Shown here: positions 4,908-62,378 of the stretch, in pieces
Position numbering within the stretch: the first letter of the stretch is position 1
Layout: the number at the start of each line of letters is the position of its first letter
DNA from: Heterodontus francisci
Lineage: Eukaryota
Direction: 5' to 3'
Assembly: GCF_036365525.1 (NCBI RefSeq)
Contig: NC_090417.1
Span: 2,590,832 to 2,654,831, forward strand
Length of the DNA: 64,000 bases
Notes under the pieces: model-generated
Seen by the model: the letters and a program-made list of their open reading frames with translations, nothing else
What the model was told of the DNA's origin: nothing
Databases searched by the model: none
Translations under genes and position numbers: made by a program

Positions 4908-5052
4908 GAAAATAAAAGCAAAATACTGCAGATGCTGGAAATCTGAAACACAAACAAGAAATGTTGGAAATACTCAGCAGGTCTGGCAGCATCTGTGGAG
5001 AGAAAAGCAGAGTTAACGTTTCAGGTCAGTGACCCTTCAACAGAAGATGATG
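4908..5052 (-). mobile_element. Short Penelope-type retroelement tail with a 13-bp TSD and a decayed hammerhead motif
   Basis: Flanked by AAGCATTATTCTC at 4895-4907 and 5053-5065. Related copies lie at 8231-8319, 37928-38222, 49050-49145 and 52495-52585. Confidence 0.65.
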
Positions 5053-5127
5053 AAGCATTATTCTCTGCTGTACTTGGAGCTTCAATTTAATTCTTCACTG
5101 AAATGTTGTTTTTGATTGGCTCTTCAG

Positions 5128-5278
5128 GAGTCTCGGTGCTCGGCGGATCATGACTGTGGCCCTGGGAAATTCTGCCTTGCTTCTCGACGCGAACAACCCA
5201 TCTGCACTGCTTGCAGGGGGCTAAGGAGACGATGCCAACGGGATGAAATGTGCTGCTCAGGGAGCCACTGTTTAAATG
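5128..5278 (+). CDS. DKK4: Dickkopf-4-like protein, internal coding exon (CRD1, N-terminal cysteine-rich domain)
   Basis: Acceptor ...tcttcAG at 5127 and donor G|GTAAG at 5278; 151 nt, phase 0 to 1. Encodes ESRCSADHDCGPGKFCLASRREQPICTACRGLRRRCQRDEMCCSGSHCLN, containing 9 of the 10 CRD1 cysteines. The CRGLRRRCQRD.MCC segment matches DKK4 as recalled. Confidence 0.92.
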
Positions 5279-5734
5279 GTAAGAATTCAACAGCAGCAGC
5301 ATGAAGTTTCACCAAACAGCAGTGTCTATGTGCCATGTTAAAATGAAGCAGGCTCACTTTGCATTATAGCCTGAAAGGACTCCAGATCAAACTGGCTCCA
5401 AATGATTTTTGTGCGTCAGCCTGTCTGTGGCGAAGCTGGTTGATTCCAAATGATGATGGTGTTAAATATTAACCTGATTCCTTAGATCATCACTGGGTAA
5501 TTGAGGGGCTGGATTTTCTGATTGCCATTATTTTGAAGCTAGGGTAACCCATTTCTGTCTGAACATCAGTGTGAAAAGTAACACAGGTCAGAAAATCAAG
5601 TTCATGTGGTCTGGCATTACCTTCTCATTGTTTGTTGAGGGCCACAAACTCAACCAATGTCTTGCTCAAGATCCACTTTTGAAATGATGCCCACAGACTG
5701 AGGGAATGGAGTCAGGGTCATTCCATCAAACTGA

Positions 5735-6005
5735 TTTTAAGGTGCGAGGGGCAAAATTTAGAGGGGATGTGCGAGCCAAGTTTTTTTACACAGCGGGTGG
5801 TAAGTGCCTGGAACTTGCTGCCAGGGGAGGTGGTGGAAGTAGATACGATAGCGACGTTTAAGAGACATCTAGACAAATATATGAATAGGAAGGGAATAGA
5901 GGGATACGGACCCCAGAAGTACAGAAGGTGTTAGTTACAGCAGGCATCAAGATCGGCGCAGGCTTGGAGAACCGAATGGCCTGTTCCTGTGCTGTACTGT
6001 TCTTT
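5735..6005 (+). mobile_element. CR1/HER1 LINE 3' end
   Basis: Encodes FKVRGAKFRGD...FFTQRVV..WN.LP and ends with the GAATGGCCTGTTCCTGTGCTGTA tail. Confidence 0.85.
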
Positions 6006-7092
6006 TGATTGGAGGCCAAATTCGCCCACAGGCAGAGAGAAACCCATGAAATGGATAGGATACATTCACTGATCCCACACTCCATCTCCTGCCAAGCAAA
6101 GTGTTGGTCCATTACATAACTATTTCTATTTTGATGGCACCCTTTCCCTTATTCTACGGACACTGGGATAATCATGCCTTTTAACAGAATTCTTTAGGAA
6201 CAAAGAAAATGTGAAGGAATGGCAGTTCAGTCAACAACCAGTAGCTGGCAGATGGAGAACGGAAATTAAAGGTACAGAGTAGCAAGTTTACCACTTACAC
6301 AGGTGGAGAGATGAACTGGAAACGGCCCCTGAGCTGTATCATGATACCACCCTGTAAACCAAGCTCTTCGGTTTAACATTCTTTCTGTACTGCCTCCCCA
6401 ACCATGAAGCACTCCCTCAGTAAAACCTGCCTTTCAGGCTGCCAAGATCAAGTGGCCACTGTTGAACATCCTGGACAGTAATGGGTTAAGAACTGAACTT
6501 CCTTGTATCTTAGAGCAATGGACTATTCAAGATAAACAGGTTAGCAGTAGGGTGCCATAGAAGAAAGCTTGGTTTATGTTCCACTTCAAATTTCTCAGTA
6601 TTATCTACAAGAAATTCCTGTGCAAGGAAATAAGTGACTGGGACAACAACGGCCACGAGTGGTTGAAGGTTAACTTTAGTGGCTACTATAATGAACATAG
6701 GCAGAGGGTTACATTGATTGTCGTGTAGAAAAATAAGCAGTACAGTTAAGTTGGGAAGTTTTGGTTGAGAGAAGAATCTTTGAAGTAAAGAACTACAACT
6801 GTTTATGTGTATAGACTGCTTTCAAAGGATTCAGAAACAGATATGTCATGAGATCTTATTTGTGATATGTACTTTTGACGTAGACAAACTAAGGTGTACA
6901 AGGGAGCATGGTTTACAGAGGGTTCAAAAGATAGAGGCAGGAGCAGAATCCAAAAGCCAATCTCAGTGTACAGTTAGGCTGATCAATCCTGTATAAAGTC
7001 TGTTCTGTATACTCCATCATCAAGTGTCTCGAGCTTACTCAAAGTGAATATGGCCTTTCTCACTGTGCAGCGCTTCCTTGGTACTGCCCCTC

Positions 7093-7724
7093 TGTGCAAC
7101 ACTCCTTCAGTACTGCCCGACAGTGCAACACTCCTTCAGTACTGCCCCTCGACAGTGCAACACTCCTTCAGTACTGCCCGACAGTGCAACACTCCTTCAG
7201 TACTGCCCGACAGTGCAACACTCCTTCAGTACTGCCCGACAGTGCAACACTCCTTCAGTACTGCCCCTCGACAGTGCAACACTCCTTCAGTACTGCCCCT
7301 CGACAGTGCAACACTCCTTCAGTACTGCCCCTCGACAGTGCAACACTCCTTCAGTACTGCCCCTCGACAGTGCAACACTCCTTCAGTACTGCCCGACAGT
7401 GCAACACTCCTTCAGTACTGCCCGACAGTGCAACACTCCTTCAGTACTGCCCGACAGTGCAACACTCCTTCAGTACTGCCCGACAGTGCAACACTCCTTC
7501 AGTACTGCCCGACAGTGCAACACTCCTTCAGTACTGCCCCTCGACAGTGCAACACTCCTTCAGTACTGCCCGACAGTGCAACACTCCTTCAGTACTGCCC
7601 CTCGACAGTGCAACACTCCTTCAGTACTGCCCCTCGACAGTGCAACACTCCTTCAGTACTGCCCGACAGTGCAACACTCCTTCAGTACTGCCCCTCGACA
7701 GTGCAACACTCCTTCAGTACTGCC
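7093..7724 (+). repeat. Minisatellite: 20 full units plus 1 partial, in 29-bp and 32-bp variants
   Basis: Unit AGTGCAACACTCCTTCAGTACTGCCC[CTC]GAC; 11 short and 9 long units, otherwise essentially identical. Confidence 0.98.
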
Positions 7725-8230
7725 TCCATTCTGTGTATTTTTGAAATCTCCAAGCGTATAAAATATATATTGAGGGATGAGAATGATATATCTGTAATAT
7801 ATTAAAAATCTTACATCTGCATGCACTCCCTGGCAACCTTTCCATTATAAATTCCTAAGTCCACTCTTATAATGGAAAACATCTATATAAACTTTTCACA
7901 TTGCAATTACATTCTCCTACCAATTTCAGCACCGCCTCTAGTGGGGACTGTAATTCTAACATGCTGGTTTACCTTCAAACACTGCTGGTCTTTCTGCTGG
8001 CACAGTCTGCCTGGAAATTTGGCAATCATTAAATTTAACTTTAGCCACAATGAAAGTTGAATCGTGCTGATGGTTTCATTCCCACCTCTGATCCCACCAT
8101 GCCTTAAGCAATTTCTCAATTTTATTCCCTCTTGCACCATGGAGAGTTCATGGTGTTGCATGTTGTTTAACCAATCAATTTCCCAGATGCAATACCATTG
8201 TAACCTGTAGTGTGCTCCTGATATCAAGCA

Positions 8231-8319
8231 ACAAAAGCAAAATACTGCAGATGCTGGAAATCTGAAATAAAAACAAGAAATGCTACTGCTGAGTATTTCC
8301 AGTATTTCTTGTTTTTATT
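8231..8319. mobile_element. Inverted pair of Penelope-type tail fragments (hairpin)
   Basis: TGAAATAAAAACAAGAAAT ... ATTTCTTGTTTTTATTTCA, with TCAAGCA repeated on both flanks. Confidence 0.55.
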
Positions 8320-10976
8320 TCAAGCACCTACAGTTGGGATTCCCTGCACTTTGAACTATTTACGCACATTCACACAGAAACACAACACACATACAACAGA
8401 TCTGAAAGTTATGTAGTGCTAAAAACCTCAAGCAGATGTCATGTAATTGGGAGCCGAGTTAAAAACTCCAATCAGTGAACATTTGCCAGTCTCCAGGACA
8501 ACAGGATATTTAGGCAAACAGATGGATTGATTTATACTTACTATATTGCATACCTCACACAGAAGATATTAAATGTGAAATGTTTATTTAAATTTTAACT
8601 TTAAAAATTGTACTGTGCCTCAGTGTGGCAGAAGGTATTTTTTTCAATCATACGGTTTGGTTTTGAGTTATAAGCTTATCTTGTGAGTCTTGTTGTGGCA
8701 CCTACAGACACAAAGCTGGATCAGATTCAATGACAGGCACAATGCTCTGTGTAGAAAATAAGTTCAGGCCACAAGTAGATGCTTTCATATGGCTTAAGTG
8801 CCTTGACTAAGCAACCTGTACGCACCAACATATCAGAAGTACACATCTCCATATTGTTAATGAAACAACAGGGGAAGCAGAGAAATTCCTGTAGATCTTC
8901 GAGTTACTACTTTCAGACAGAACCATTTCCTTTTATTGTCACAATCTGCTTCTGTTACCAGCTTTCGTATATAGATATCGTATATTGTACCTATCTATAG
9001 AATATGCAATGTATAGTAAGTGTGAAGCAACCCATCTGATTGCCTAAACATCTTGTTGTCCTAGAGGCTGGCACATGTTCACTGATTGGAGTTTCGAACT
9101 AAACCCCCAATTACATGGCATCTGCTGATTTTCCTTTCATCCATGTCTTGATTATATTAAAAGTCTTACATATGGAACTTGCTCACATGCCTTCTGAAAA
9201 TCTAACCAACATCCACTGAATTGCCTTCACTGATTTAGTTCAACATTTGATTTGCTGTCCACAGTCCCATTGATAATATTAACCGAGTGGAACTTTATGA
9301 TATGATAATGCCTTTTCTTACCTCCACCTGTTTAAACCCTGAACCATGCTTTTATCACCTTTAGACTTCATTTTTGCAATGCCTTCCTTTCTGGCCTCTT
9401 ATCCTCTGCTTTCCACAAACACCATTTTATACGAAATTAGAAGCAGAAGTACGCCATTCAGCCCCTCGAGCCTGATCAGTCATTCAATAAGATCATGGCT
9501 GAAACACAGCTGTCTGTATCCTGTCTCACTCCCACATCATCCGTCTCTCCCTCCTCACTGACTCTCCAACCCTCAGTGTGTCAAATTTAAGCTCCTCATT
9601 CAAATCCTTCCATGGCCTTTCTCAACGACCCTATGTCCAAAACCCCCTTTAAGTACACATATCCCTTACACCTGTTGATTCTCTGACTCTGACCTTCTGA
9701 GTATTGCCCCTTCCCTTTACCTCCCTATAGCAAGAGTAGCTTTCAGTTGCCCACGCCCACGTTGTTAAACCCCTCCACTTCTCTCTCCTTGTTTATAAGC
9801 ATCAAGAACTATCTTTTCAACCAGGCATTCATTCCCCCAAACTCTCCCTCTGTGTTCTGGTCTATTTCTAAATGTGAGACACTTTGGTATTGTTCTTATG
9901 TTAAAGACAATGCAAAATGGAAGTTACTGTTATTAATAGGAGGGAGAATTCTATACAATTCAGATCAGCCATGATCTAATTGAATGCCAGAATAGGTTTG
10001 AGGGGCCGAATGGCCCACACCTACTCCTACAATGTGTAGCAAATTGAAAGTAAAAGATGGGATCGTGCATAGCAATGCATTGTATTAGTGTAACAGGGAC
10101 CATGCATGTAATTATCACATCTGTCTTTAGGGGAAGGTGCAAAGAACAGCTTCACCACAAGGAGCCAGAGAAAATCGAGGGTCTCTGAAATCATTGTTAA
10201 GTTTGGAAAAGGCAACAGATCATTGGAGGAAGGAAGGGCTGAAGAAGTTAAGGAGTTTGACAATTTAGAACTCTTAGGAAGCAATGATTTAGAGGTAGGA
10301 TAAAGGGAGGAGGAAAAGTATGTAGGATGAGCTATTCAGAGCTTGAGAGGAATGAGAAAGGAAAATTCAGAGGAGCAATGATAACCATCTGCTACATTAA
10401 CAGAGGTTTGCGAAGAGGGCAGCTGCTTTCTGACTGGGAAAGAGCATGTGTTGAAAAATGGATCTACAACAACGGAAAAGAACATTGCAACATGAAAAAT
10501 AATCCTTGATGATTAAATGTACACAGGATTTTCCTGCAAATTATTGCGAGTGATCACTTGCAAAAACTGAATGTAATTTTTGTGGCAAACCTGGCTATTC
10601 ATCCAACAGGAAATTGGCTGTCTCCTCTTGTGAAGTTGAGTTCTGTATAAATTGAGAATCTTTAACTCCCTCACATTTCATCAGAAATCTGCTTGGAAAT
10701 ACACCTTTGAAAGGTATCTTTAATCTTAACTCCTTTCTCCTGAGCCTTGACTAGCCGAAGGCAATGCTTTCATACAGCTGCATCCTGCGTAAATCTACAC
10801 CTACCACTGTTAAGTGTCACACAATAAAGTTAGCTTGAAAAGCCTTTCCATCTTGTGAACACAATTCGTGGTAAAGTACTGAAATTGTGTAAGAAGATTG
10901 ATCCCTCGGGAAGATAAGTGCTGGGAGGAGGGGGCGTTGGTAATTTCTGATAGACGTATGTTTTGCTCTCTCTCAG

Positions 10977-11144
10977 ATGTGTGCACACGGTCAGAAGGGC
11001 AGACTGCGGAGAAGTCATCTGAGGCGACACAATCACGGAAAACAAAGAGCAGCAAGAAGGCCAAGAAACCCAATTCCCAAAAAATAATTGAAACTCGGCG
11101 GAAGAATCAAAAGGAAAAGCTCGACAAATCACAAGAGAGCAAAG
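10977..11144 (+). CDS. DKK4: Dickkopf-4-like protein, internal exon (end of CRD1 plus basic linker)
   Basis: Polypyrimidine tract ttttgctctctctcAG, donor AAAG|GTAATA; 168 nt, phase 1 to 1. Splicing restores ...CLN-D-VC (10th CRD1 cysteine) and joins in frame to the last exon. Confidence 0.9.
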
Positions 11145-12357
11145 GTAATACATGTGACCAGCTCCAGCTGGCCACTTTTGATTTGCGCAACTTCTGCATT
11201 GCATTGGTCTTTACCCCACCTCAACACTAAAAACACGCAGAGGTGAAATAGTCATATTACATTGCAGCTCATGGAAAGTAAATATCTGGATACTTCACTG
11301 GTCGCACTGGAGCGTGCTTTAATCCTGCTGGAGATAAATTATGTAATATTCCCATTAAAATACCAGTAATTTGATATAAACATTCACTGCTTGGAGTAAA
11401 GTTGTGGTAAAATGTGGGAGTGAAACAGAAATGTGGGTCCTATGCCAGAAATTGTTGATTGTGCCCCTTTAACTGAATACTTCAAATCGTGCTCTCTTCC
11501 ATGTTCAGAGCCCAATTGTGCAACTGACTGGAATATTGGAACAGGAGCACGCTATTTAGTTCTTTGAGACCATTCAATGAGATCATGGCTAATCTAAGAC
11601 CTAACTCCATGTAGGATTTCTAGTTATTATTGAAAGTTACACAGTGCTATATTCACAGTTGCTATATGTCCAGGTAGAATTGTAGAAGTTGGTCCGTTGC
11701 AAGTTGTTTTTCTCTATTTCACTTTGCTGTTCTTGCAGCAAGGATCGATTTCAGTTCTATAGGGTGTGTGTATGTGTGTGTGTGGACAATACCCACCCTC
11801 ATTCCTTAACTCCAGCCTTTTTGTTTGTGAGATAAGTATCATAAGTACACAGACACTTCAATGATATGATCCAAGGTTGAAAGAACAGAATATATTTCAG
11901 GTCTTATTTTGTAATTCATGTCTCCCTCCTGGATACCAAACACCAATCCCTAGCTGTGATGACAGACACATGACCTTCTGGACTATCATACAGCAGCCAA
12001 CAGTTAAAGATGTAGTAAAACTGGGTCTCTAACCTTCCTCCTTCTTAGTAAGCATATCAAGTCTATTTGCAGCCACACTTCCCAAAAAACTGAGCTGAGA
12101 CCAAGGAGTAGGAGAAAGATGCACTGATTTGTCAAGCTCAATGTTCAGCACGCTTACATCACCAACAAAAATGCTTTTTCATGATTGCATAGAAATATTT
12201 CTCATAGCTTATTAATTTATTTCTATATTTGAGTCTGCAAATAACTTAAGCAAAACTTGTAATAAAAAAGCATTTGGTTAGGTTTATCATTGCCTTATGT
12301 TCAGGCTTGGCACAACATAATTACCATCATTGGATCATGAACTGCTAAAGTTATCAC

Positions 12358-14530
12358 TTAGAAACATAGAAAAGATACAGCACAGAAAGAGGCCATTCAG
12401 ACCATTGTGTCTGCATCGGCTGAAAAATACTAGCCCCCCAATCTAATTCAGCACCTGGTCCGTAGCCTTGTAAGTTGTGGTACTTCAGGTGCAGGTCACC
12501 TTTTAAATGAGTTGATGGTTTCTGCCTCCACCACCGATCCGGGCAGTGAAATCCAGACATCCATCACCCGCTGGGTGAAAAAGTTTTTCCTCATGTCCCC
12601 TCTAATCCTTCTATCAAACAACCTTAAATTTGTGTTCCCTGGTAATTGACCTCTCTGCCAGGAGAAACAGGTCCTTCCTGTCTACTTTATTTAGGTCCCT
12701 CATAATTTTGTACACCTCAATTAAGTCACCCCTCAGCCGCCTCTGTCCTAAGGAAAACAACCCTAGCCTATCCAATCTTTCCTCACAGCTGCTACTTTCA
12801 AGCCCTGGCAACATTCTTGTAAATCTCCTCTGTAGTCTCTCCAGAGCAATTAGGTCCTTCCTGTAACGTGGCGACCACAGCTGTACTCAATTCTCCAGCT
12901 GTTGCCTAACCAGCGATTTATTGCACTTCCTGCATTAAATCCCAGTTTTTGTATTCTATACCTCAGCCAATAAAGAAAAGCATTCCATATGCCTTCTTGA
13001 CCACTTTATCTACCTGTCCTGCCACCTTCAGGGACCTGTGGACATGCACTCCAAGATCTCTCACTTCCTCTACACCTCTCAATATCCTCCGGTTTAATGT
13101 GTATTCCCTTGCTTTGTTTGCCCTCCGCAACTGCATTACCTCACACTTCTCCGCATTGAATTCCATTTGTTACTTTTCCACCCACTCAACCAAACCATTG
13201 ATATCATTCTGGAGTCTACAGCTATCCTCTTCACTATCAATTACACAGCGAATTTTTGTGTCATCCGCAAATTTCCAAATCATGCCTCCCACATTTAAGT
13301 ATATTAATATATATATACACATTAATACACACAATGCACATTAATATATACTGCAAACAGCAAGGGACCCAACACTGAGCACTGTGGAACACAGTGGAAA
13401 CTGCCTTCCATTTGCAAAATCATCGGTCAACCCTTTGTTTCCTTTCACTGAGCCAATTTTGGATCCAACTCACCACATTCTCCCGTATCCCTTGGGCTTT
13501 TACTTTTCTTACCAATCTGCCATGTGGGACCTTGTCAAATGCCTTACTAAAATCCATGAAGACAACATCCACTGCACTACCCTCATCAAACCTCCTTGTT
13601 AGTTCCTCAAAAAAATTCAATTAAGTTAGTATGACACCACCTTCCCTTAACAAATCCTGCTGACTAGCCCTGATTAATCTGTGCCTTTCTAAGTGACAGT
13701 TATCCTATCTCTCAGATTTGATTCTAATAATTTGCCCACCACTAAGGTCAGACTGACCGGCCTACAATTATTTGGTCTATCCCTCGCACCCTTTTTAAAC
13801 AATGTTTGCAGACCTCTAATCGTCTGGTACCTCACCTGTAGCTAGTGAGGATTTGAATATGATCATCAGAGCATCTGCTATTTCCTCCCTGGCTTCCTTT
13901 AATAGCATGGAATACAATCCATCTGGCCCTGGTGATTTATCCACTTTCAATTATGTCAGACCCTCTAGTAAAGGCCTGCTCAGGTCGGGAAAAAGAACCT
14001 GACCCGAACCCAACTGATCCACAGCAGACCCAAGTCCGACCTGGCCCGAGTCCCCCCAATTTTGCCCCGAGCCTGACCCGACTCGACTCGAACCGAGCCC
14101 GACCATCCCTTTACTTACCTTCTGACTCGGAACCTCCAGGAAGCTGCAGCGCATGCGTGATGATGCCATAGTGACGTCACTCCCTCACTGTGCAGACTCA
14201 GTTTCGTCCCGGACTCCCAGCTCAGGTAAGTTTTTTAATTTCAATACTTATCGGCAGAGCAATTATTGTGTGTCTCCGGCCCGACCCAAGCCCAAAAACT
14301 GGACCCGACCTGAACCCGACACATGTCGTTGGGTCCCGTTGGGTTTGGGTCGGGTAGCAGGCCTTTACCCTCTAGTACTTCCTCTCTCATTATACTTATC
14401 ATATCTAATTTTTCGCACTCCTCCTTTAACTACAATGTCTACATCATCCCTCTCCTTTGTGAAGACAGAGACAAAGTACAAATTAAGAACCCTGTTCACA
14501 TCTTCTGCATCCAACCATAAGTCACCTTGT
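12358..14530 (-). mobile_element. CR1/HER1 LINE, 5'-truncated, interrupted by a hAT MITE
   Basis: ORF fragments VDVVFMDFSKAFDKVPHGRL, MEFNAEKCEVM and RLRGDLIEVYKIMR; 3' tail near 12360. Confidence 0.92.
13969..14367. mobile_element. Non-autonomous hAT-type DNA transposon (MITE), 399 bp
   Basis: Perfect 12-bp TIR TAAAGGCCTGCT/AGCAGGCCTTTA, 8-bp TSD CCCTCTAG (13961-13968, 14368-14375) and repeated subterminal ACCCGA-like motifs. Confidence 0.9.
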
Positions 14531-15199
14531 ACGTCTGGACCTTGTACATCTCTGATAGGCTACCAATATTCTGACAAATAAATACTGGACATAAAAACAA
14601 AACCTTTTTAAACTTTTAAAAGTTGTAACTTTCCATAAATAGTTAACCCAGTGTTCTCCCCTCAACCAATAGCACCAAGTTAACAGATTAATTCATCATT
14701 TATCTCATCTGCTATTTGCCAGGTCTTGACTGCGCACAATTGACTGTCAGGTTTATCCTGATAACGAGAGTCACTGCATTTCAGAGTGGTTATTGTACGC
14801 AAAATGTTTTGGGGTGCTTCTCAGAGATGAAAAGGTGCGATATATTTTTTCTTTCATCTGGAGATCAGGGAATATATCTGTGTAGAACTTTCTTATGGAA
14901 GATTAAATGGATGGTGAGTATATACTGGAACAGATTCCACAAGGAACATGGAAGGAGATGCACTGGTTGGTCAAACGGCCTTTATCATTTCCTGTATTCT
15001 TAAAACCATTTTTATTAATGCTCTTTTAATTTGGATTCCGGGAGCCCATGTTAAATCTAATTTCTGAGACTGATGAATTACTTGTGGCCCCACTTCATTA
15101 AATGGCTTCTCTTTAGAAATTAATACCAAAAGGTATTGGAGTAATTTGACAAATGCTGCTGCAAAGCACTGTTCCACATCGTCCAGAAATGCTATCAAA

Positions 15200-15625
15200 A
15201 AATAACGTGCCTTTAATGACCTCATGATATTCCAAATTGCTTTACAGCCAATGAAGTATTTTTGAGGTGTAGTCACTGTTGTAATGTAGGGACAAGTGGC
15301 AATAGAACTGTGTGCAGCAAGGTCCCTCAAGCAATGATGAGATAAATGACCAGAAAATTTGTTTCAGTGATGTTGGAAGTGGGATCCATGTTGCCCAGGC
15401 ACCGAGAGAGCTCCCCTGCTCTTGTTTAAATAGTGCCATGAGATTTTGTGTATTTATCTGTGAGGGCAGACTGGGCCACTGTTTATGGCTTCTTCCAACA
15501 GTGCAGCATGCCCTTGGTACATCACTAACCTAGATTATGCACTCAAATCTTTGCAATGAAGCTTGAAACCACAACCTCTGACACAGAGGCAAAGGTGCTA
15601 CCACTAAGTTGAGGCTGACACCTAA
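15200..15625 (-). mobile_element. tRNA-derived SINE, Deu-domain type
   Basis: Reverse-complement homologue of 50636-50725 plus 51491-51830, with a tRNA-like head near 15560-15620. Other partial copies are near 3950, 14640, 19070 and 22440. The family name is from recall. Confidence 0.55.
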
Positions 15626-16122
15626 ATTGGACCTCAACAATCACACTAAGCAGCACTGCTCCCTCTATGGTAGTCTGTAATTACGGTATTTAACAGGTAC
15701 AAACTTTTAATTAGCTACCATCTGGCTTCTATGAAAGCCCAACCAATTTATTTTTACAGCTGTGAAAATTCAATATTCATCATCTCATTCATTGCTAAAG
15801 ACATAATTTGGTTTCAATCCTGCGGCAATCGCTGTGCCAGGAAAATATAATTAATTTGTTGTGTTTTACATATCACAGTTTAATAACTCAAAGACCAGGC
15901 ATTCTGAGTACTATGCTTGACTTCTCTCAGTCAGCATCGCCACATACAGTCAAAACACTGCAAAGCATATGCGGACCTCGCCAGAGAAGATACTTAAAAG
16001 AGCAGTGTATCTCAAAACGGGATAAGCGTGTTGGGAAGGGTCAACTAGCACTTCAGGCAAGGACAGAGCACAAGGCAAAGATTTGGAACCAGGAAAGGTT
16101 GTGTTAGGGAATGAAAGAGTAG

Positions 16123-17734
16123 GTTATAACCTCCCTGTACATGGATGACGTCGCCGTCTTCTGCTCGGATCCGCTGTCCGTGCGCAGACTGATCAGCATC
16201 TGCGACCAGTTCGAACTGGCCTCGGGAGCCAAAGTTAACCACGGCAAGAGCGAGGCCATGTTCTTTGGGAACTGGGCTGACCGATCCTTTGTCCCCTTCA
16301 CCGTCAGGTCAGATTACCTGAAGGTGCTGGGGATATGGTTCGGAAGGGCCGGGGCGTGCACCAAAACCTGGGAGGAGCGAGTAGCCAGGGTACGACAAAA
16401 GTTGGGCATGTGGGGGCAGCGATCTCTCTCCATTGTGGGTAAGAACTTGGTCATCAGGTGCAAGGCGCTCACGTTGTTGCTGTACGTGGCGCAGGTCTGG
16501 CCCATACCCCATTCCTGCGCTGTGGCAGTCACCCGAGCCATTTTCCGCTTCATCTGGGGATCTAAAATGGACCGGGTCCGGAGGAACACGATGTTCAAAT
16601 CTCTGGACAAGGGCGGGAAAAATGTACCCAACGTGGCCCTCATCCTGATGACCACCTTCGTGTGCGGCTGCATCAAGTTGTGTGTAGACCTCCAGTACGC
16701 AAACTCCAAGTGTCACTACGTGCTGAGGTTCTATCTGTCCCCGGTGTTGCGAAGGATGGGCCTGGTCGCATTGCCGCGGAACGCTCCATGCAGTTGGGCC
16801 GTGCCGTACCACCTATCCTTCGTGGAGCAGTTTCTGTGGGAAAACACCTTCGACCACCGGTCCATCAGGCAGTGGTCTGCATGGAATGTCCTCAAGGCTC
16901 TACGGGAAAAGGAGACGGTGGATCCTGTCGGATGGTTCCCCGAGCAGACCGTCAAAGTCATTTGGCGGAATGCCTCATCACCAGAACTTTCAAACAAGCA
17001 CCAAGACGTAGCTTGGCTGGTGGTGAGAAGGGCCCTCCCCGTCAGATCCTTCATGCACACCCGAAGTCTCGCCCCCTCCGCACAGTGCCCCCGCGTTGGC
17101 TGTGGTGGGGAAGAGACGGTCGCCCACCTCCTCCTGGAATGTGCCTTTGCAAAGCAGGTGTGGAAAGAGATGCAGTGGTTTTTGTCAAGGTTCATCCCAA
17201 GCAGCTCTGTAACACAGGAGTCTGTGCTCTACGGGCTGTTCCCAGGGACGCACACCGAGACAAACATCAACTGCTGCTGGAGGACTATCAATTCGGTGAA
17301 AGACGCCCTTTGGTCTGACCGAAACTTGCTGGTCTTCCAGCGCAAAGAGTTGTCCACCACCGAAAGTTGCAGACTGGCACATTCAAAGGTCCAGGACTAC
17401 GTGCTGAGGGACGCACTAAAGCTTGGGGCAGCCGCAGCAAAGGCTCACTGGGGAAAGACCACAGTGTAAGGTCCTCCCACCAAGCTGAACTGAGGGGCTG
17501 GATCCATGGGAAACCCCTCGAACTGTATCGTTAATATTCTCAATTGCTGTAAATGTAAAACTGTAATTGACATGACAATTGTGAAACGGAAGGGTTGGGA
17601 AGAAACTCATGACAGTATTGAAGGAAACTGATCTCCCTTGCAATGTTTGTATTTTTTGGTGCTGTTTTGAAACTGTTTGGCAATGTAATTTTTACAGATT
17701 TTTATGAATAAAGTATATTTTGGAAATTAAAAAA
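16123..17734 (+). mobile_element. Tx1/L1-clade LINE, 5'-truncated, young
   Basis: Open ORF2 fragment from LYMDD (RT catalytic motif) through the zinc knuckle CPRVGC...ETVAHLLLEC to the stop at 17469. AATAAA at 17707-17712, then an A-tail. 13-bp TSD AATGAAAGAGTAG at 16110-16122 and 17735-17747. Confidence 0.95.
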
Positions 17735-20700
17735 AATGAAAGAGTAGTGGGTATCTTGGAACACTGGACACCATAGTGGATGAATCTTGAGGAGGGGGAG
17801 ATTTCCTGTATTCGTTAAATGTAACAAAATTGCAAAAATATTTACAAGAACCAATCAATTTTATTATATTGAATGGAGCCAAGGAAATTGCTTCTGTTTC
17901 CATCATGTGCAGGAGGAAGAGTATGTACCTGGAATTAGTACGGGCTCTGTTGGTAAAGATCTTGTACTGGAGAACAGCACAGGATGACAGGCCCAGCAAT
18001 ACAGTGTTTTTGTGTCCTTGCCAATGGAGCTAAGGTTCTCACCAGAGGCAGCAATCAACAGTAGTTCAATACAGGTTCCTCTTCCATACCTCAATAGTCA
18101 GCTCCAGAAAAGCTTTAAGAAAAACCTGTCAGCAAGGGGCTTCCTCCTTTAAGGCAAGGAGGTTAATGATGGTTAATTTCTTGCTAGACAAACTGCAAGT
18201 GGGGCAGATCATTTCTATTGAGCAGAAGCCACTGTCTGTGTCTGAGATGGGTATCTATGACACATGCTACATCTGCAATCACACCTGTGCTGTGCAAGTA
18301 CTGTACCAAACTCTCCATACTTTCAGTATCAGTCTTACAGCTGAGCAAGATGGATGAAAACTGTTGGAAGCATCGTCAAAAAGCAGGGAATGACAGGGTC
18401 TAATTCTTGCCTTTTATTTCTACTTTTTGCAAAGTTATGAAAGCAGCTTTCTTTCCACATGATGAGCTGAACAAAAGTTGTTGTTGTTCATTGCATAATC
18501 TTTTAAAACTAAGTTTAATAAGAATTGCAGCCAGAAAATCCTGAACAAAGTGACTAGAATTTCTCCGGGACACCCGATGAATGCCTTCCTGAAGTTGTAC
18601 AACTTTGATCCGACTTAAGGAATACAGCAAGGAATTAAAGAACCACAATATTAGCATTTGAACATCTTAACTTTAAAGGCTTTGCTACATTAATTACACA
18701 GACAATGGTAAGAAACTCAAAGCCTTAATAGTGATTTCTGCTCATCCAGTACTGGATCTCAGACAAGCAGTCTGATAATATAGAGAACAATTTAGCAAAC
18801 ATGATATTCCTATATAAAGTGATACTTAATTTGGAGAGTACTGCAGACAGCAGCTGCAGCACAAGTTGATGGCCTATAAGAATGTTAACAGTATCCAGCT
18901 AATCACCTAGTGGGTAAGTGCATTGGGTGAATCGATACTGAGCCATTGAAACCAGCAGACTCCATGGTTTGACCCTTAATCTGTGTTGAGTTGATTGATT
19001 TTAGCCAAGAAATCACAATTGGCCTCAATATCTTTGAACATGGTTAAAGCACAGGTTAAAACACTTCCCTGAAATTCAAGATCACATGGTACTATTTGAA
19101 GAAGAGCCGTGGAGATCTCTTGGTGTCCTCGGACTCGGTGGGCCGAAGGGCCTGTTTCGGTGCTGTATCTCTCTATGACTCTATGACTAAAAAGCAGATT
19201 ATCTGGCTATGTCATAGCTGGTTGTGGGAGCTTGCTGAAGATCTTTCTGCTTGAAGATTACACCTTAAAAGCTACTTCCATCACAGTATGTTGATTATAC
19301 TGCCACCATCTTGTCCTAGGCCTCTATCCTTCTAAAAAAAAAAGATAGGACAGTGTTCGAGGATTTTATTCTGAGTTAACTCATTTCCCACTCAATATAC
19401 CATTAGAGGATTTTCACTCACAATCTTTACTCCAGGGAAAATACTAGTCTGATATTATCACTAGAGAGGGGAGTGCGGCAAGTGTTGCCGATACCCAGGA
19501 ACATCAGAAGCAGATAGCAGGTATGAGACCAGAAGGGTTTCAGATTTGGTTGATGGATCTCAAGTAAGATGGCAGATAGGGATCTATGATTGACCTTACA
19601 ATCGTAGGCTGTGGAGGGAGGAAAAAGAAAAATCAGCCAGGTGTGGAAGTCAGCATAAAAACGGGATTGTCTTAACTGTGATGCAGTTGAATAGCCTGTC
19701 AACACTCTCTGAGCACACATATGAAGATTGACCACTTGGATGCGAAACTAGTGGGCTGCTGGGACTGCGTGACTGTACACTAGCAACAGTTAAGCATCCT
19801 CAGGAGGGGAACTGAGGAAACTGCAAAAATAATCAAGTGTTATGGTTTGAAAAGGAGAAATTAGTTTCATAACTGCATGAGAATCTGGCAGCATAACTAT
19901 TCTCCGACCCCTCTTCACCTCATAAATAAATTTGATAAAGAAGAAAAGCAAATCTCCAGCATCTTGTGGTAAGCAAACAGCTCAAGCCACAATTTTATAA
20001 ATACATCTTGTGAATTAATCCCACAAGTTTATAATTTATTAAATATGTGGAGAGTTTGCTATTGGGATGTGGTGAACCTTCTGAATGAGTCATCACATTT
20101 TAAACTGTAGGGCTTGGAATCAGGCATGTTATTAACGTAACCATCAGTAGATTGGAGAGTCAATGCCATCCAAAAAGTAATTAGACCAAACGCTGCGCGA
20201 ACAAGCCTGCAAAGCTTAGTGGCAGGACCTCCACATAGATTCGCAGAGAGGCACTGGAGAAACCAACCTGGTACATTTTCTTACCAATTCCAACTGTATC
20301 ACAATATTGAAGTTTGCTTCCACAACAAAGGTCAGTCTGAGGTGCAGACTACCCTCTCACTCATTCATGTCGCTGTTCTATTTCCTTCCCCCACCAAGTT
20401 GGGAGAGAATGAATTAGATTGTGAAATCACCTTACAAAGATAGCGCAAGTTTCAGTTAGTTCCTGATTATACACCCAAAAATTGAATGAAAATTAAAGGA
20501 TTTTTGTCAATTAGTTTATCAGCATTTTTAAACTTTGGGTATAGTAGAGAGAGTAAACTTTGCTTTCGATTGATTGTTTCTCAAGGTACACATTTTGGTC
20601 AAGGAGCTTGAAACACAATGGATATGCATTGGAGTTTTGACTGCATTTGGTTAATGTCAGCTGTTCAAATGGGCAAGCTTTTTATTTTGAAGCTTCTGAA

Positions 20701-23700
20701 CCACAGGGGTTCAATAAACATCGTTTATCTTTGATACTGTGAAATAGAAGCTGATCCATGTAACTAAAAGTACTTTAGCTTGTTCCTAACTTTTGTTTCA
20801 ACATGTTTTCAAAGGATCTTAAAATATGTCAAAGAAGTAAGCCAGCCTTGGATGGTGAAGGTAATTGACAGCAATGACTGAGGTCTATAAGCAGGGACAA
20901 GGTCAATGATTGCCTCTAGCACTTTTATCGACATCTCTGTGGCTAGTAGCCTGAATTGGGGTTTAATTGAGTTGCTTGAACTTTTTTGTCAGTTAGCAGA
21001 CAGTCTGGACTAGTCTGATTCCACGGTAGCCTTTGCCATTCATGAAGTTAGCAATCATTTTCAGCTATTTAGTTATGTTAAAAGATAGCTGGGGGATGTG
21101 CCTTTAGACCTAATAAATCAAAAAGAGTAGGAAAGCTTGTAAAGTTCTGTGAACACACTGCATTGCATTGAGCACTGTCCATTTACCTATCCTCTGTTAA
21201 TTAAATCGTTTTCTGGTTTTTGGCCTGGGGCTCAATCTGATGGACTTTATAATTAATCCATTTACTGGTGATGAGGACAATCATGTGGTGTCACAGGATA
21301 CAGTCCAGTAAACTGGTGTACAGTGACAAGAGTTCTATGATTAATCCCTGAGTCTCACTATTGGTTAACTAGATATTGGGCAAGTAAAAGCATGGAATTC
21401 ATGCCAAACCTAACCAACACCTTGTTGTACATGTAACCAGAAGTGGGAATGTTTCTGTTTGGCTGCATCAAATACATTTTCTTCCAAAAGAAAGTTTCTT
21501 GTCCCCTCTCCACCATGGCCTTCCATCGTCTCCTGAAGACACAGGGCAGAGTTGCCAGGGGAGGGAGATTCCCAAATTCCTGTTATACACCATTTCTTTG
21601 GGTGTTCCTCTGATTTTCTGCTGAAGTTAGAGGGCGATCAGAAGCACCTGTGGAAATTCTACTCTGCTGTCTTTTGCTGACATACTGTTTCAGAAGCAAC
21701 AGTTATCCTCTTGCATTTATCCACGTGTTCATTTGTTATATTGAAATGTCGGGAGAGTAGTAACCTGCAGGAGGCACAACAGCCTGTTCTCACTTTGCTC
21801 TAGCCACTGGATCATGATCACTAACGGAAACCCCAATTTTGCCACGCCCTAGTGTACGAGCATTTAGGCCAATTGTAGTGCATCTGGTTCCATCCAATGG
21901 AGATTAACTAACTCAGCACAGATAGAACATGTGACCTTTTTGGGGGAGTCTGAATAGTTTAGTCCCAAACTGGATAAAACTATAAGGTGGTTAATTTCCT
22001 CAATCAGAGGCTGGCAAAACTTTTCATTTATATAAAGCCCCAGTTGCATTATTGCTCTGCTACAAAGTTTACTGGGTTCAATTTGGCATGGTTTGCTGAC
22101 TAAATGAAAGATAACAATGCCTACAGTTAGCATTTGGCAATGCTATTACTAAGCAACGTATTCTTGCCTGGAACCCAAGCAACTATTTCAAGGATGTGAA
22201 AGCCAATTTCACATTAAGTTGCACATCCCTAAAATACTCGCAGTAGAGTGATGATATTTAAGCCTCAGCAAAATGCAATACTCTAATGTGTAAGTCAATC
22301 AAACAATTGAGATATTGCTGAGATATTGTCTGTGGAGTGTTAGGGTTTGCTGAAATATTGCACAGTGTCTGCTAAATAGTACCATCAACCATAATGCTCC
22401 ATAGTATATTGCCTGCTTGATACAGCTGCATTGTACACAGCTACCAACAATTTGCATTAATATAGCACCTTTAATATTGTAAAACAGCCCAAGGTGCTTC
22501 ACAGGACATTATCAGACAAAATTTGGACACTGAGCCAAAGAAGGAGATATTAGGACAGGTGACCAAAAGCTTGGTCAAAGAAGTCTATTCAAAGGAACGT
22601 CCTAAAGGAAGAGAGTGGTATCAGCCTAATTACAGGGTAAAAGAATCGGGAAAATTCCTCTCCCACCTCCACAAGTAATTAAACTAATCCAGATCACCCT
22701 GCCCCTTATTAACATTACAATAGCAATTGTCTAAAATTACACAAAATAATGGGGAAAATACACCTAAAAGACACAGCTGCTAACCAACAATAAAAAAAAT
22801 CAACAAATTGTAAATATTCTGTAAAATACAACCTCTTACAAGTGCAAAACCCTTTGAAAGAGTAATACAAGTGAGTACGGAACAAGAAACAAAGGCATTC
22901 ATGCTATTGAAACTATTCCTCATTACCCTCTATGTAGAACCTTACTGTTGCTGACTCTCGCCAACTCATTTGGAGTGAGTCTTTGGCTTAGTGGAAGCAT
23001 TGTCATTTGTGCGTCAGAAGGTGCAAGGTTGACACTCCTTACCAGGCAATCCTAACTAATGGGATTGGAGCTATGGCTCTGAATTCTGGGTCAACATCCA
23101 GTGGAATACTTGTGCCGATGGGTGTGAGTGCCCCTCCACCCTCATGTGTGGGGTGGTGGGAGTCCATAAAACTCTCTTGCCATATCGGATGGTGACAATG
23201 GTTGTGGTCTGTCAGATGTTCATCAGTCAGTGAATCTGTCCACTCAAAAGAAGAGTGTGTAGATATAAAAATAACCAACTTATTTAAACTCTTGAAAGGG
23301 TGGAATAAAAACATTGTCAGATTTCTCCCTGAGGTAATCTTGAAACTTCAGGACTAATGTTCCAATTTCCATTATTGAAGACTGTCCAGCTGCGTCCAAC
23401 AGCTGACATGTTTGTGAAACTGACCACTAACTTTGCTCATCCACATGACCTTCAATTGTGCCCCTAATTAAATATTCATGCAACTCTGCTAAAATAGAAT
23501 CAACCACATGTTACTGGAAGTTTACCCTTCTCTAAATCTAACAATACAAGTCAATATTTCATTCATGCCATCTAGTGCTGTGATCACAGTTAAGGTTAAA
23601 CACATTGCTGCTATTTAAGCAGTGCAAAATACAAACACCAATGCACAATACAGAGATGTGATTACAAAGTTCTTACCTTGGCATCCTGAGATGAATATTT

Positions 23701-24841
23701 AATTGTGGAGCTTCGTTTTCACTGTAGAATCACTCTCAGGCTATTTAGCTTGTTGTGGTATGTTGCGAGTGCGTCTCATGCACTAAATCTTGGACAGTTT
23801 TAGGATGACCTAATCACAGGGTAAGAATTTCTCTGGTTGCTGTGATGTTGTTAAATCACTTGTGAAGATTTCCTTTCTTGGGTACTGCTAGCACGTTCCT
23901 GAAGTATTTACTTCCACTTTCACTAGAATAAACAGTAGGACAGGCTGAAAATGCCACTTACAAGTGTCAACATGGGGAGTGAAATTTATATGACAGTCGC
24001 ATTGTCAACCATTTAAATTAATGAAGGTTTGCTTATACATTAACATCTTAAACCAAAATGAGTCAGTCTCACTTCCAAGTAAGTGCTTTACATTAAAACC
24101 TTAAAGCATATACACACCCAAGTTTGACAAACATTGATATATAAAGCAGAAGTTAAAGCCTTTTTATAAAGACAAAGCTAAATAAATACAAGTTGTTTCC
24201 TTATATTGGAAATGCACTGTAAAGCTGTAGAAAAACACGTCTTCATAAAATGAAATGTAATTAATTTGCAATGATAAGAAATTAACAGGAACCATGAACT
24301 ATCGAAGTGTCACTTAGGAGGACAGGAAGACATTTTATCTTGTGTAGGAATCAAAATGGATCAACAGAATATACTTCAGCATGGGATATGGCTTTGGTGG
24401 CTCGATGTATACTCAGAGGAAAAAAACACAGTGAGCTAACACATCAAGATTCCTTATCTTCAGAGGGAGTGCTGCCACACTGAAACACATAGATGCATGT
24501 ACAAATTGGCTAGCAGTGAATTGCTCTATTTTACTTGAAGTGCACTTTATATGTAGGAGTTAACACACACACAAACTGTAAAATACCATATTCAAATGAA
24601 TTGTTCCTTTATTCTGTCATGCATTGCACATATATAGAAGCTGACAATGATGGATGCATGAGCTGTACAGTATAGGGAGGATGGTGGGAGGAAAGATTCC
24701 TTCCCTTTCCCTACTCAGTATGTACCGTACAGGTGCAGAAGCCAACCCAAGCATATTAATCATACCATATTAGCTGACAAAGAACTGCTTTCTTTTAGTC
24801 AGCGTATACTGTTGATAAGAAGTGCTTTTTATATGTTGCAG

Positions 24842-25095
24842 GGCTGGAAGGAGAGACATGCTTGCGAACATCAGACTGTTCTACTGGATTGTGCTGCGCT
24901 CGTCACTTCTGGTCAAAGATCTGTCGGCCTGTCCTGAAAGAGGGGCAAGTCTGCTCGAAACGGGGTCGTAAGGAGGGCCCACAGGGGCCGGAGATCTTCC
25001 AACGATGCGACTGTGGACCAGGATTAGCCTGCCGTAACCAAAACCAAGGCACACCACAAGGCGACTCCAGGCTACGGGTCTGCCAACGTGTCTAG
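24842..25095 (+). CDS. DKK4: Dickkopf-4-like protein, terminal coding exon (CRD2, colipase fold, LRP5/6-binding)
   Basis: Acceptor ttgcAG at 24841. Encodes [64 protein letters not shown]...SRLRVCQRV then TAG. It has 10 cysteines, the DKK motifs CCARHFW.KIC and EIFQRC.C, and the DKK4-type [13 protein letters not shown] and RLRVCQ. Confidence 0.95.
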
Positions 25096-25234
25096 AGAGA
25101 TATCCCGGCCTGAACTCTTTGGTTTAATGGCGTCACAAATTAAGAGGATCAGCTATTGCACCAGTTAAAGTAAAATTAAACTAAACAAAGCTGAAAATGC
25201 CAAACCCCATGCATCAAAATAGATACAAAAAAGT

Positions 25235-25292
25235 ATTAAAATGAGCTTTGTAAGGTGAAGCACTTGAAACATGGTGTGTGTGTGTGTGTGTG
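25235..25292 (+). terminator. Candidate DKK4 polyadenylation signal (ATTAAA) followed by a (TG)9 GU-rich downstream element
   Basis: ATTAAA at 25235-25240 (another at 25155-25160) and a (TG)n tract at 25275-25292, at the spacing expected for a downstream element. The first canonical AATAAA seen on + is at 28063. Confidence 0.35.
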
Positions 25293-28200
25293 CGTGGTGG
25301 AAGAAACGTTAGCTGACTGTACCAAATTGAATCAATAGATGACAGTATTTGAAGGCCAAAGGTGGTGTCCCAGTCTTGAAGACAAGTTGCAGAGAATGCA
25401 GGTTTACAGCAGAACCAACCAGTTCAGTATTGCCCACTAAGATTTCAGTAAAGTATGTGAAAGTTTCATATTATGTTCACTTGAACTGTGAAAAACGTCC
25501 AGCAGTACAATTTGACATTGTGCCCTTCCAAATTTGAGCTGTGTCCACAGAAAGGAATTTGAATCATTTAACACAAGAGTAAAGTATGAAAGAGCATCTA
25601 ACTTGGAGAGGGTGGGAGTAGAAAAGTGCTTTTAATTACTGAGACACACTAAAAGTGTTAAAATAATAGCATAAAATGTTGAAAATATTCAGCAAGTCAG
25701 TCAACATCTGAACTGGGAAAAGCCAAGTTAATGTTTCAAGAAGGACTCTTGTCAGAATTGGTGAAGGGTCTACAGGTGAAGCAGTAATCTGTCTCTTTCA
25801 GATGTTCACTGGCCTGCTGTGTTTTACATCTGCAGCACTTTATTTTGTTTCTCCTATAAAGATGTATTGTTTTTCAACTTGACAGCTGAGAGCTAGATGT
25901 GCAGTCAGGGCTCCTATACAGGCAGCAAACAAATGGTTAAAGCTGTGCATACCCAGGCCTCATTCACTAAAAGAACAAGCAGAGCAAATTCTCCTATTGA
26001 TAAGAAATTAAACGTAGTTTCGGTTTATTTTGGGAAGTGTTCTAAGCTCTGAATGTGACTTTAACTGTGCTTTTTGGACTGTTGCCTGTTGAAGTGCTCT
26101 ACTACTACCCTCTACATGTTTCGCATCTACTTCACATTAGTCAAGCTATTGCATCAAAAGTAAAATATGCTACAGGACTTTTTAAAAATCTAATTGCGTA
26201 AATTCACTAACACTTCTTATTAACTTGTTGAAACTCCATTAACAATGTTTGACTGACATCACAGCAAAAATAATTAGGATAAATACACCAAGAAATGTTC
26301 TTTTCTTCATGGTTTGACTGTTGCCCATACACTAAACTTTAATTTCTTTTCATGCTTTTGCTGCTGCCCTGAGCCAACATGGTGATTTTCTCCTGAGCAT
26401 CTGTGATGTTGTAGCGTCTAAGAGATATTCAAGTCAGTGTACTTCTTTCCTCTTCATGATCCTCCATTTGTACCACACATATTCCCCGCCAGGCAGCCAG
26501 CCATAGCGGGTGCAATAGATCTGCTTGAGAAGTCTTACTCACCAACGTTTTGTCTCTCCATGATCTCTGCTTGGCAGTCTATCCCCTCTGCACCTCCAAC
26601 ATCACTATGCGCTAAATGGAGATGCATTTCTGCATCCAACTGCTCTATCACACTGTGTGTAGATTTAGAATAATTAATTATTCAAAATAATAATTCACGT
26701 AAAGCTCAGTGTTAAATGCATGTTTCAATATCACCACACCAGTTGTTGTTTGAACAGCATTATGAAGGTTGCATGAACAAAATTTCTTCATTTGATTGTT
26801 TAATGTAACTGATGGGAGAAGCGGAGCTTGCATGGTTAACAGCTTATATGCTATTTACAAGCTATCAAAAAGTTGCAGCCTTTTGTAAGAATACTTGAAC
26901 AGAATCCCCATCATCAATATAATCCAATACCCTGTTACTTGTACAATGATGCATATAATCATATGTAACATATGTTTGAAAATGATCATAACACATATTA
27001 CATAAGATATATGTTACACAGGGAAACGACTTTAAACATAGGAGTACACAGATGCTACAAAATGCAAAAAGGCAATTCAGCACCACCAGGCCATGTTGGT
27101 ATTTTATCTTTCACCCAAGCAAATACAACTCAGTGGAAGTCCTGGACTCTGCGTGAATCAGCAGACATTAGGCAATGCTAGGTTCTGCTTAGAGATTGCA
27201 GGCAGTAAACATCTCAACAAACAGTTGCAGAAATGTTTTTCCCATTTCAAGTACCGTATCCACTGCCATGTTGGGTAGGACCGATCCATCATAAGATGTA
27301 AAATCAGTCCCAATGTTGTATGAAATTTAACCTTTGCCAAGTTCAGAATTCTGCATTTCAAATTAGCACAGATACAATTCAGCCCCACCTCCAAGGAAGT
27401 CCTGCGGCAATCTCCTGTCATCTTCTTCCCACCTGCTAGCTCTTCTTCACACTATTTTGCATTCATTTCTAAAATGTTTGAGAAAGTTTGGATCTTTGAA
27501 CAAATTTCTGTATATATTATAAATGAGATCAAATGTGTGTGAAAGCCTGTAAAAGATACTAGTAAATAATTGGGTTAGTAGCTAACCAATTTGGCAAATT
27601 CTATGGAAGTGTTCACAAATAACTACTTAAACCAGAACTATCAGCATACCAATGACGTAGGAGTTCATTGGAGCTGTCCACCCGAACTCAAAAACTGCCA
27701 ACTATTCTTGTCAGTTTCAATTAAATTTGAGGCCCCTCTCCCTACACAATCCTCATTTTGTGCCATAACTATGGTTAATTTATGGCGAATAATCAAAATT
27801 GGCAGATAATTGAGAGTCTTGGCAGCCCAACTCCAGTTGATCAAACTCAACAGCTGACCCAACAACCTAAAACTGCTTTCCAGCACTAAAAAAAAGACAC
27901 AACCCATATCCCTGATCCCACTGTAAGTTGCAGTCCAGTGCATGTTCCAAATCCAGTTAAGTGCACCTAACACACCCAACTCAAAGTTGCAGCTCTGCAG
28001 TTAAAAGATGTGAGCCAAACAAAATCTCAGCCTGACTGGAAGTAACAGCCCAAAAGTTTGATAATAAACCCTAATTGGTACTGGTCTAATTTGTGGACTG
28101 TCTTGATAACAAAGACTAGGATGAAGAACAATTAGAGGCTCCAGGTTTCTTGAAACAAACAGAGAGAGACTGATGAGTAATATAACAAATTGAATAAACC

Positions 28201-29190
28201 CAGTTGGACTGCAGTTCCCCTTTAAACCTCAGTGACATGCCTGATAATGCTCCAATACACAAGGTATTGTAGTTGAAAGTGTTTTGCTGGTTCTTACTAA
28301 TTTACTGTGTGTTAGGATCATTTTGCATTTTAATAAAAGAACAATAACTTACCTTTATAACCTTCCTTTACTTACTCCAACACTGTTAGCTCAATCATCA
28401 GTTCCATGTGATGCTTGAATTGCACCAGCATAGTCTGAAAATAAGCCTGCAATTGTACACTAATATCATCATACATCCATTTTCTTTCATTCTAAACTGC
28501 CCTACTTTTAACTCATTGCAATACAATATCTGCTATATTTTAAGAAACAAGATAAATAAACTAGTTATTCCAGAAAGAACACACATTGCATTAGGAGAGA
28601 TGCCACACAATATTACAAATGAGTTACATGTGTTTGCACCAATTGTGCAGAAGCTATGTCCAAGTACTGGTGTAGACAATGTACAGCATTCACAACTTGT
28701 GCGACATGCACTCCCATTAGAGAACCAGGTGGGAGTGTCGTGTTAGCCCCCATTCAATGTATGCCATATAAACAAGAGATAAGAATGATACACACACAGC
28801 CACTGAATAGTAAATGATCGTGAAGCTTTTACCTAGTGTATACTGCACAATATGTAAGGCTGGCAAAAAGTTGGCCACTAAGATTTGTGCAGTCCCTTAT
28901 TGGTTTTGCAATGAGTTCCTAAACATATAACTCATATACTGTATATACACATTTATGAAACAAGCTAAAGGGCATTGTATGGAAAGTATCAGTACAATTA
29001 GCTTAACTTTGGAAAAGGTGTAATAATAAAAGTTGATGTAGCTTGTGCTGTTTAAGCTGACCTATCCATCTGCATTCCTTTGGCCTTGCTAGTTTTACAA
29101 ATAGTATTGATTAATCGTGTGTAATATTTGTATTTAATATTCTATTTTTTATTCATTATTAAATGTCACATCAATGTGTCTTCAAAGTGC

Positions 29191-29196
29191 TTTATT
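29191..29196 (-). terminator. Candidate POLB polyadenylation signal AATAAA
   Basis: TTTATT on + at 29191-29196, about 170 nt past the POLB stop codon. A second one lies near 29148. Confidence 0.45.
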
Positions 29197-29366
29197 TATA
29201 ATACTGCACAAAACCTTATAGAAAGACTGATCTTCTCTACAAATGCATTCTAACTTCATGCATAATATACTAGTCATATATGCGTATACAAAGTTCTTTA
29301 GCGAAGAATTGCAAAATCCTTTACATTTTATATAAAGAGGTTCTGTGGGTGACCCTCAGATGCCAC

Positions 29367-29461
29367 TCACTCACTTCGCTCTCTCGGCTCTCGATATTGC
29401 CAGTCGATGTAATCGAAGATGTCCTTTTCACTTTCCACTGGCAGTGGTTCACCTGGCACTC
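29367..29461 (-). CDS. POLB: DNA polymerase beta, last coding exon
   Basis: Acceptor ctgtAG on the - strand, then 95 nt to TGA. Encodes (G)[30 protein letters not shown], matching the vertebrate POLB C-terminus (human [31 protein letters not shown]). Confidence 0.97.
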
Positions 29462-53597: not shown

Positions 53598-53737
53598 CTG
53601 TGCTTCCCAGTGGGCGAATTGTGTACTCATTCAATGTGAAACCTTTTTCTAGTGCCTGGGTCCTCATGTTCTTGTTAAAAAGATCACTGCCCGTGAAATA
53701 AAGCACGCCACAGAAATACTGATCTTTTGGAATAAGC
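53598..53737 (-). CDS. POLB: DNA polymerase beta, penultimate exon (nucleotide-binding subdomain); absent from the ORF track
   Basis: The - strand reads cctgcAG|G CTT ATT ... AGC ACA G|GTAGGA; 140 nt, phase 2 to 1. Encodes (R)[46 protein letters not shown](G), with the X-family YFTGS motif, N279, R283 and E295-Y296. Confidence 0.97.
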
Positions 53738-62313: not shown

Positions 62314-62378
62314 CTAATGTCAATTCTCCTGAATGGATACTCACTACCATCACTATCATCTGGCAATCGACAGACACC
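62314..62378 (-). CDS. POLB: DNA polymerase beta, third-from-last exon (contains catalytic Asp256); absent from the ORF track
   Basis: The - strand reads ttcttcaacAG|GGT GTC TGT ... GAC ATT AG|GTGAGT; 65 nt, phase 0 to 2. Encodes GVCRLPDDSDGSEYPFRRIDI(R), matching human GVCQLP...[10 protein letters not shown]. Confidence 0.96.

Follow-up and report, generated by a model that had tools for sequence, protein, structure and literature searches.

We are highly confident that the window, by which we mean the whole 64,000-nucleotide stretch of Heterodontus francisci DNA analyzed here, holds exons 2-4 of an intact, spliced shark DKK4 that converges with POLB, and that encodes a predicted secreted inhibitor of canonical Wnt signaling. 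The open frame with its 20 cysteines and the spliced contigs that join exon 3 to exon 4 agree with an earlier reading made from the sequence alone, in which the gene had been described as apparently intact. The evidence comes from the exon structure, a phylogenetic analysis of DKK1/2/4-type proteins, the neighboring POLB gene, and assembled contigs from four sequencing runs. All positions are counted from the first letter of the window.

Coding exons and the full-length protein

The part of DKK4 that lies in the window consists of three coding exons.

5128..5278, + strand: DKK4 exon 2 (151 nt), encoding CRD1 with 9 of the 10 CRD1 cysteines
10977..11144, + strand: DKK4 exon 3 (168 nt), encoding the final CRD1 cysteine and then a Lys/Arg-rich linker (net charge +8)
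24842..25095, + strand: coding part of DKK4 exon 4 (254 nt), encoding CRD2 (10 cysteines, HFW, EIFQR) and ending in a TAG stop

An AG lies directly 5' of all three exons and a GT lies directly 3' of 5128-5278 and 10977-11144. When spliced, the exons form one frame of 190 amino acids that contains 20 cysteines and ends at the TAG. Dickkopf_N (PF04706) from Pfam matches exon 2 with an E value of 8.7e-16, and both DKK1/2/4 C-terminal subdomains (PF21481 and PF21479) match exon 4 with E values of 1.3e-19 and 6.8e-16, respectively. The sequence-only description of three in-frame GT-AG exons encoding 10 + 10 cysteines was therefore borne out. Three alternative sets of exon boundaries were rejected because they violated either the frame or the GT-AG rule.

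As had been proposed, the HFW and EIFQR segments are present in CRD2, as seen in its alignment to DKK1 and DKK2 PDB chains. HFW and EIFQR are LRP6-contacting segments in DKK proteins. Both, however, are common to DKK1 and DKK2 as well, so they serve as indicators of function and are not diagnostic of DKK4.

The 190 residues are identical throughout to residues 40-229 of RefSeq protein XP_067879456.1 (P0001), which is named "dickkopf-related protein 4-like" in Heterodontus francisci, and the RefSeq gene and the window gene are in effect one gene. The match agrees with the shark origin that the sequence-only reading had given as probable. The N-terminal 39 residues of this protein, encoded by exon 1, contain a hydrophobic leader (judged by eye) and an NxIR motif in the form NTIR. 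A tblastn search of the 64-kb window with XP_067879456.1 returned just the three known exons, and no candidate with both a hydrophobic leader and NxI[KR] was found among the ATG-started frames with phase-0 donors at positions 1-5127. Exact 5-mers of the first 39 residues gave at least 6 isolated chance matches in the window. We infer that exon 1 lies upstream of window base 1 and that the window opens within intron 1; the signal-peptide exon is known here from the RefSeq model rather than from the letters of the window.

The two DKK4 introns in the window measure 5.7 kb and 13.7 kb (13,697 bp between exons 3 and 4). The following repeats and fragments of mobile elements were also found in the window.

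4390-4601: tandem repeat, 110-bp unit, ~2 copies
7081-7724: tandem repeat, 29-bp unit, ~21 copies
16123-17469, + strand: reverse-transcriptase fragment of a non-LTR retrotransposon (Pfam zf-RVT/RVT_1)
31877-32725, + strand: DDE_Tnp_4 transposase fragment in the last POLB intron (Pfam)
41945-43312, - strand: reverse-transcriptase fragment of a non-LTR retrotransposon (Pfam RVT_1)

Orthology and linkage to POLB

A search with the exon-4 protein returned 281 matches, and the best 15 of the 120 listed are all chondrichthyan DKK4 or DKK4-like records from 13 species. Among the matches listed, CRD2 is 87-95% identical to these other chondrichthyan records. Our main maximum-likelihood tree (LG+G4) comprised 47 rows representing DKK4, DKK1, DKK2, "DKK2-like," and amphioxus and echinoderm outgroups; it was derived from a set of 65 rows by leaving out 18: 13 paralogue rows that were thinned, 4 rows that were unplaced or sat on long branches, and 1 outgroup. 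The window protein falls within a chondrichthyan DKK4 clade (98/95) that is nested in DKK4 (99/99), and a quick tree of all 65 rows under a mixture model gave the same DKK4 placement (99). AU tests rejected trees in which the window protein was forced to group with DKK1 (p = 7.4e-5), DKK2 (p = 1.1e-9), or DKK2-like (p = 5.1e-5). DKK1 (99/97), DKK2 (100/99), and DKK2-like (94/97) each form a separate clade; how the four paralogue clades branched relative to one another is not settled by the 47-row tree. Chondrichthyans carry separate members in each of the DKK1, DKK2, and DKK2-like clades, and Heterodontus francisci has its own distinct DKK1 (P0130). The CRD2 loop is longer by one residue in 26 of the 29 DKK4 rows scored versus 0 of the 31 DKK1/DKK2 rows; of the remaining DKK4 rows, two have the loop by eye and platypus is without it. 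Together with the POLB adjacency described below, the tree and the AU rejections uphold the assignment to DKK4 rather than to DKK1 or DKK2.

DKK4 is one of four DKK1/2/4-type paralogues of jawed vertebrates. According to the tree, it occurs in chondrichthyans, non-teleost ray-finned fishes, coelacanth, lungfish, and amphibians, which contradicts statements in the accessible text of two papers that place Dkk4 in mammals and reptiles only (PMC6078440; PMC10606412). The fourth paralogue, annotated as DKK2 or "DKK2-like" (P0233, P0405, P0513, P0241, and P0236), was observed in sharks, chimaera, coelacanth, and lungfish; its HFW and EIFQR segments are altered and the motifs are absent. The DKK2-like clade may be the fourth ohnologue. 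We also observed that a record labeled Lampetra planeri (P0215, on a 28-kb contig) clusters with teleost dkk1a (98 in the 65-row tree), for which contamination of the Lampetra planeri assembly is a possible cause.

Downstream of DKK4, three exons on the opposite strand belong to POLB.

29367..29461, - strand: last coding exon of POLB, with a TGA stop; matches the POLB C terminus (E = 2.6e-11)
53598..53737, - strand: penultimate POLB exon (140 nt)
62314..62378, - strand: third-from-last POLB exon (65 nt)

Read as 62378-62314, 53737-53598, and 29461-29367, these exons join in a single open frame. The last POLB intron is ~24 kb long (29462-53597). The DKK4 and POLB stops are convergent and 4,271 bp apart, in agreement with the 4.3-kb, tail-to-tail arrangement noted from the sequence. 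A POLB-DKK4-VDAC3 fragment is described as highly conserved in human, soft-shell turtle, and the whale shark Rhincodon typus in section 3.3 of a previous study (PMC10967326). The convergence seen here and this published whale-shark block support the view, also put forward in the sequence-only reading, that the DKK4-POLB linkage dates to the jawed-vertebrate ancestor.

The novelty implied by that reading did not hold. Shark DKK4 is already known, being annotated in Heterodontus francisci and 12 other chondrichthyans (the catshark record, for example, is XP_038641147.1), and because the shark gene and its synteny already appear in section 3.3 of PMC10967326, both the linkage and its dating are on record. 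As for the remark that research on DKK4 has been almost confined to mammals, it is broadly correct, but a function in chicken (PMC13652249) and expression in turtle (PMC10967326) are reported in the available portions of those papers.

Transcription of DKK4 and an antisense exon

Assembled contigs from four of seven listed runs, X1, X2, X5, and X7, were aligned to positions 10900-30899. The contigs are unstranded and the run type was guessed to be RNA; X1 and X2 represent one sample from one study, and X5 and X7 represent organism B. In X1 record 1 and X2 record 8, which have 0 and 1 other letters, respectively, exon 3 runs directly into exon 4; the joint is equivalent to 11144/24842 once a shared AG is allowed for. 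Although the run type was guessed, the removal of a GT-AG intron of 13,697 bp in these contigs indicates an RNA source. Both junctions had been singled out for checking in RNA data, and the contigs of this one sample cross the second of them. For the first, the same spliced contigs reach 220 and 181 letters further upstream, which equals exon 2 plus 69 or 30 letters; junction 5278/10977 therefore fits in length, whereas the joint itself and exon 2 lie outside the aligned stretch. Runs X5 and X7 have almost no cover on the DKK4 exons, and holes in contigs were not counted as evidence.

Three further transcribed features were recognized from the contigs.

25096..26558, + strand: likely DKK4 3' UTR; a contig with the spliced joint extends to 26558 (X2 record 8; X1 records 1 and 6)
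26543..29366, - strand: likely long POLB 3' UTR, ending at a splice-donor consensus at 26543/26542; strand inferred from splice signals
23677..23922, - strand: noncoding antisense exon of 246 nt in the last DKK4 intron (X1 record 5; X2 record 11)

The 25096..26558 segment is likely the DKK4 3' UTR, with an end that is not fixed since the contigs are unstranded. X1 and X2 contigs cover practically the whole gap between the convergent stops (25096-29366), and an X7 contig, from the second organism and a second study, spans 26208-29177. Because the cover is nearly complete, the 3' UTRs of DKK4 and POLB likely abut or overlap.

Contigs from X1 and X2 cover exactly 23677-23922, the ends of which carry a minus-strand pyrimidine-rich acceptor and a GTAAG donor, and at the acceptor end each contig has an overhang of 30 letters. 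X1 contigs also branch exactly at 26543-26572, the site of the minus-strand donor consensus. Across the 64,000 minus-strand positions of the window there are 33 donors and 460 acceptors of this kind, so the coincidence of splice signals at 23677-23922 and 26543 is not due to chance. All three reading frames of the 23922-23677 exon contain stops, and one contig that contains it runs 420 nt onward into an exon without a located position. In organism B the donor GT at 26543 reads GC, and a joint from 26543 to 23922 is absent among the 15 joints listed of 154. We consider it fairly probable that the antisense exon is linked to POLB, and POLB likely has an isoform whose long 3' UTR splices across the last exon of DKK4 into the DKK4 intron. 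With its donor 2,824 nt beyond the POLB stop, this antisense isoform would be a probable NMD substrate.

These results bear on two other accounts of the locus. One assigns the gene to DKK1, to DKK2, or to the fourth, DKK2-like group instead of DKK4; it could draw on the PDB matches of CRD2, which scored 110 bits to DKK1 and 105 bits to DKK2 with no DKK4 CRD2 chain among the 6 matches, and on the hedged "-like" in the RefSeq name. The AU tests, however, reject all three placements, chondrichthyans own separate members of each paralogue clade, and POLB adjoins the locus, leaving this account with next to no probability. The other, in which a silent or decaying gene relic is crossed by transcripts that come only from POLB read-through, is slightly less remote and still very improbable: a spliced minus-strand exon does sit within DKK4, and exon 1 is absent from the window, but the DKK4 frame is open with all of its cysteines, CRD2 is strongly conserved across the other chondrichthyan records among the matches listed, and plus-strand GT-AG splicing from exon 3 to exon 4 is visible in the contigs.

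Linker charge and a possible role in placode patterning

According to the accessible text of PMC6078440, CRD2 of human DKK4 binds LRP6 E1E2 and Kremen1, while its NXI(R/K) region shows weak LRP6 binding; the residues that contact LRP6 are conserved across Dkk1/2/4. Since the LRP6-binding elements are kept in the shark protein, it is likely a secreted LRP5/6 antagonist. Going by the biochemistry of mammalian DKK proteins, shark DKK4 would be secreted, its CRD2 would bind the beta-propellers of LRP5/6 as well as Kremen, and its NxIR peptide would add a weaker contact with LRP6 E1; Wnt/beta-catenin output would be expected to fall upon binding. By analogy with mouse, the gene is probably induced by Wnt and would act in feedback. 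Our literature search found no binding or Wnt assay for any shark DKK4.

The linker between the two domains has a calculated net charge of +8 to +12 in all nine shark and chimaera DKK4 rows and of +1 to +8 in five batoid rows. Among 15 bony-vertebrate DKK4s the charge ranges from -4 to +4, with all five mammals between -3 and 0, while 17 DKK1s range from -10 to +2 and 14 DKK2s from -2 to +4. By predicted charge, then, the shark and chimaera linker is more basic than that of most batoids and of all bony vertebrates sampled, an observation that is new in this analysis. A linker this basic would probably attach to heparan sulfate, limit spread, and favor local action, and a limited spread would fit poorly with the role of a long-range inhibitor.

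That role had been suggested in the sequence-only reading, with shark DKK4 as a candidate long-range inhibitor in a Turing system of Wnt and DKK that would set the spacing of denticles and teeth. The suggestion supplements the identification of DKK4 and does not replace it, and we consider it unlikely. Several published observations are compatible with it: in the mouse, Dkk4 is induced by Wnt and serves as a marker of hair placodes (PMC5507405), a long-range inhibitory role has been proposed for Dkk4 in cat patterning (10.1101/2020.11.16.385609; reviewed in PMC10903485), and denticle spacing is consistent with reaction-diffusion (PMC6221541). In addition, DKK4 is intact in 13 chondrichthyan species. 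Against it, the accessible text of the denticle study names bmp4 as the inhibitor and has DKK just in a reference (PMC6221541), and two studies of shark teeth describe dkk1 and, in the available portions, do not name dkk4 (PMC9249395; 10.1101/2025.08.26.672487); the supplementary gene tables of the latter, a preprint, may list dkk4. Primary hairs of the mouse are normal under a Dkk4 transgene (PMC2850388), and unrelated roles of DKK4 are described in chicken Mullerian duct regression (PMC13652249) and turtle testis (PMC10967326). The difference in linker charge between sharks and chimaera on the one hand and mammals on the other would also favor a short range. We found no paper on shark dkk4 expression in a literature search that was thin on subscription journals, and in the accessible part of a study of snake scales Dkk4 appears only within a reference (PMC10266723).

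A little more doubtful still is a composite in which shark DKK4 is a Wnt-induced inhibitor in denticle and tooth placodes, with its range set by a polybasic linker specific to the lineage and its dose set by spliced antisense POLB read-through over the last exon. If a patterning role were true, the Wnt-DKK4 module that spaces hairs would be as old as jawed vertebrates, and the finding of dkk4 in shark placodes would push the feedback module of hair placodes back to the jawed-vertebrate ancestor.

The window DKK4 can be compared with three sets of known proteins. DKK1, DKK2, and the DKK2-like proteins of sharks, chimaera, coelacanth, and lungfish have the same domain plan but form distinct clades. 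The whale-shark DKK4 (XP_048474442.1) is the same orthologue, with 95% identity over CRD2 and likewise a POLB neighbor; the accessible text of PMC10967326 covers the whale-shark block in one sentence and a figure, without shark phylogeny or expression. Mammalian DKK4, for which human CRD1 structures are available (5o57 and 9x64), resembles the shark protein in its two 10-cysteine domains and, going by the RefSeq model of the latter, its NxI(R/K) motif, and both have a basic RRR patch in CRD1, the longer CRD2 loop, and POLB as a neighbor. The shark gene also differs in its introns of 5.7 and 13.7 kb. The two proteins differ in the linker, which has 59 residues and a net charge of +8 in the shark, whereas that of mammalian DKK4 has 49-54 residues and a charge of -3 to 0.
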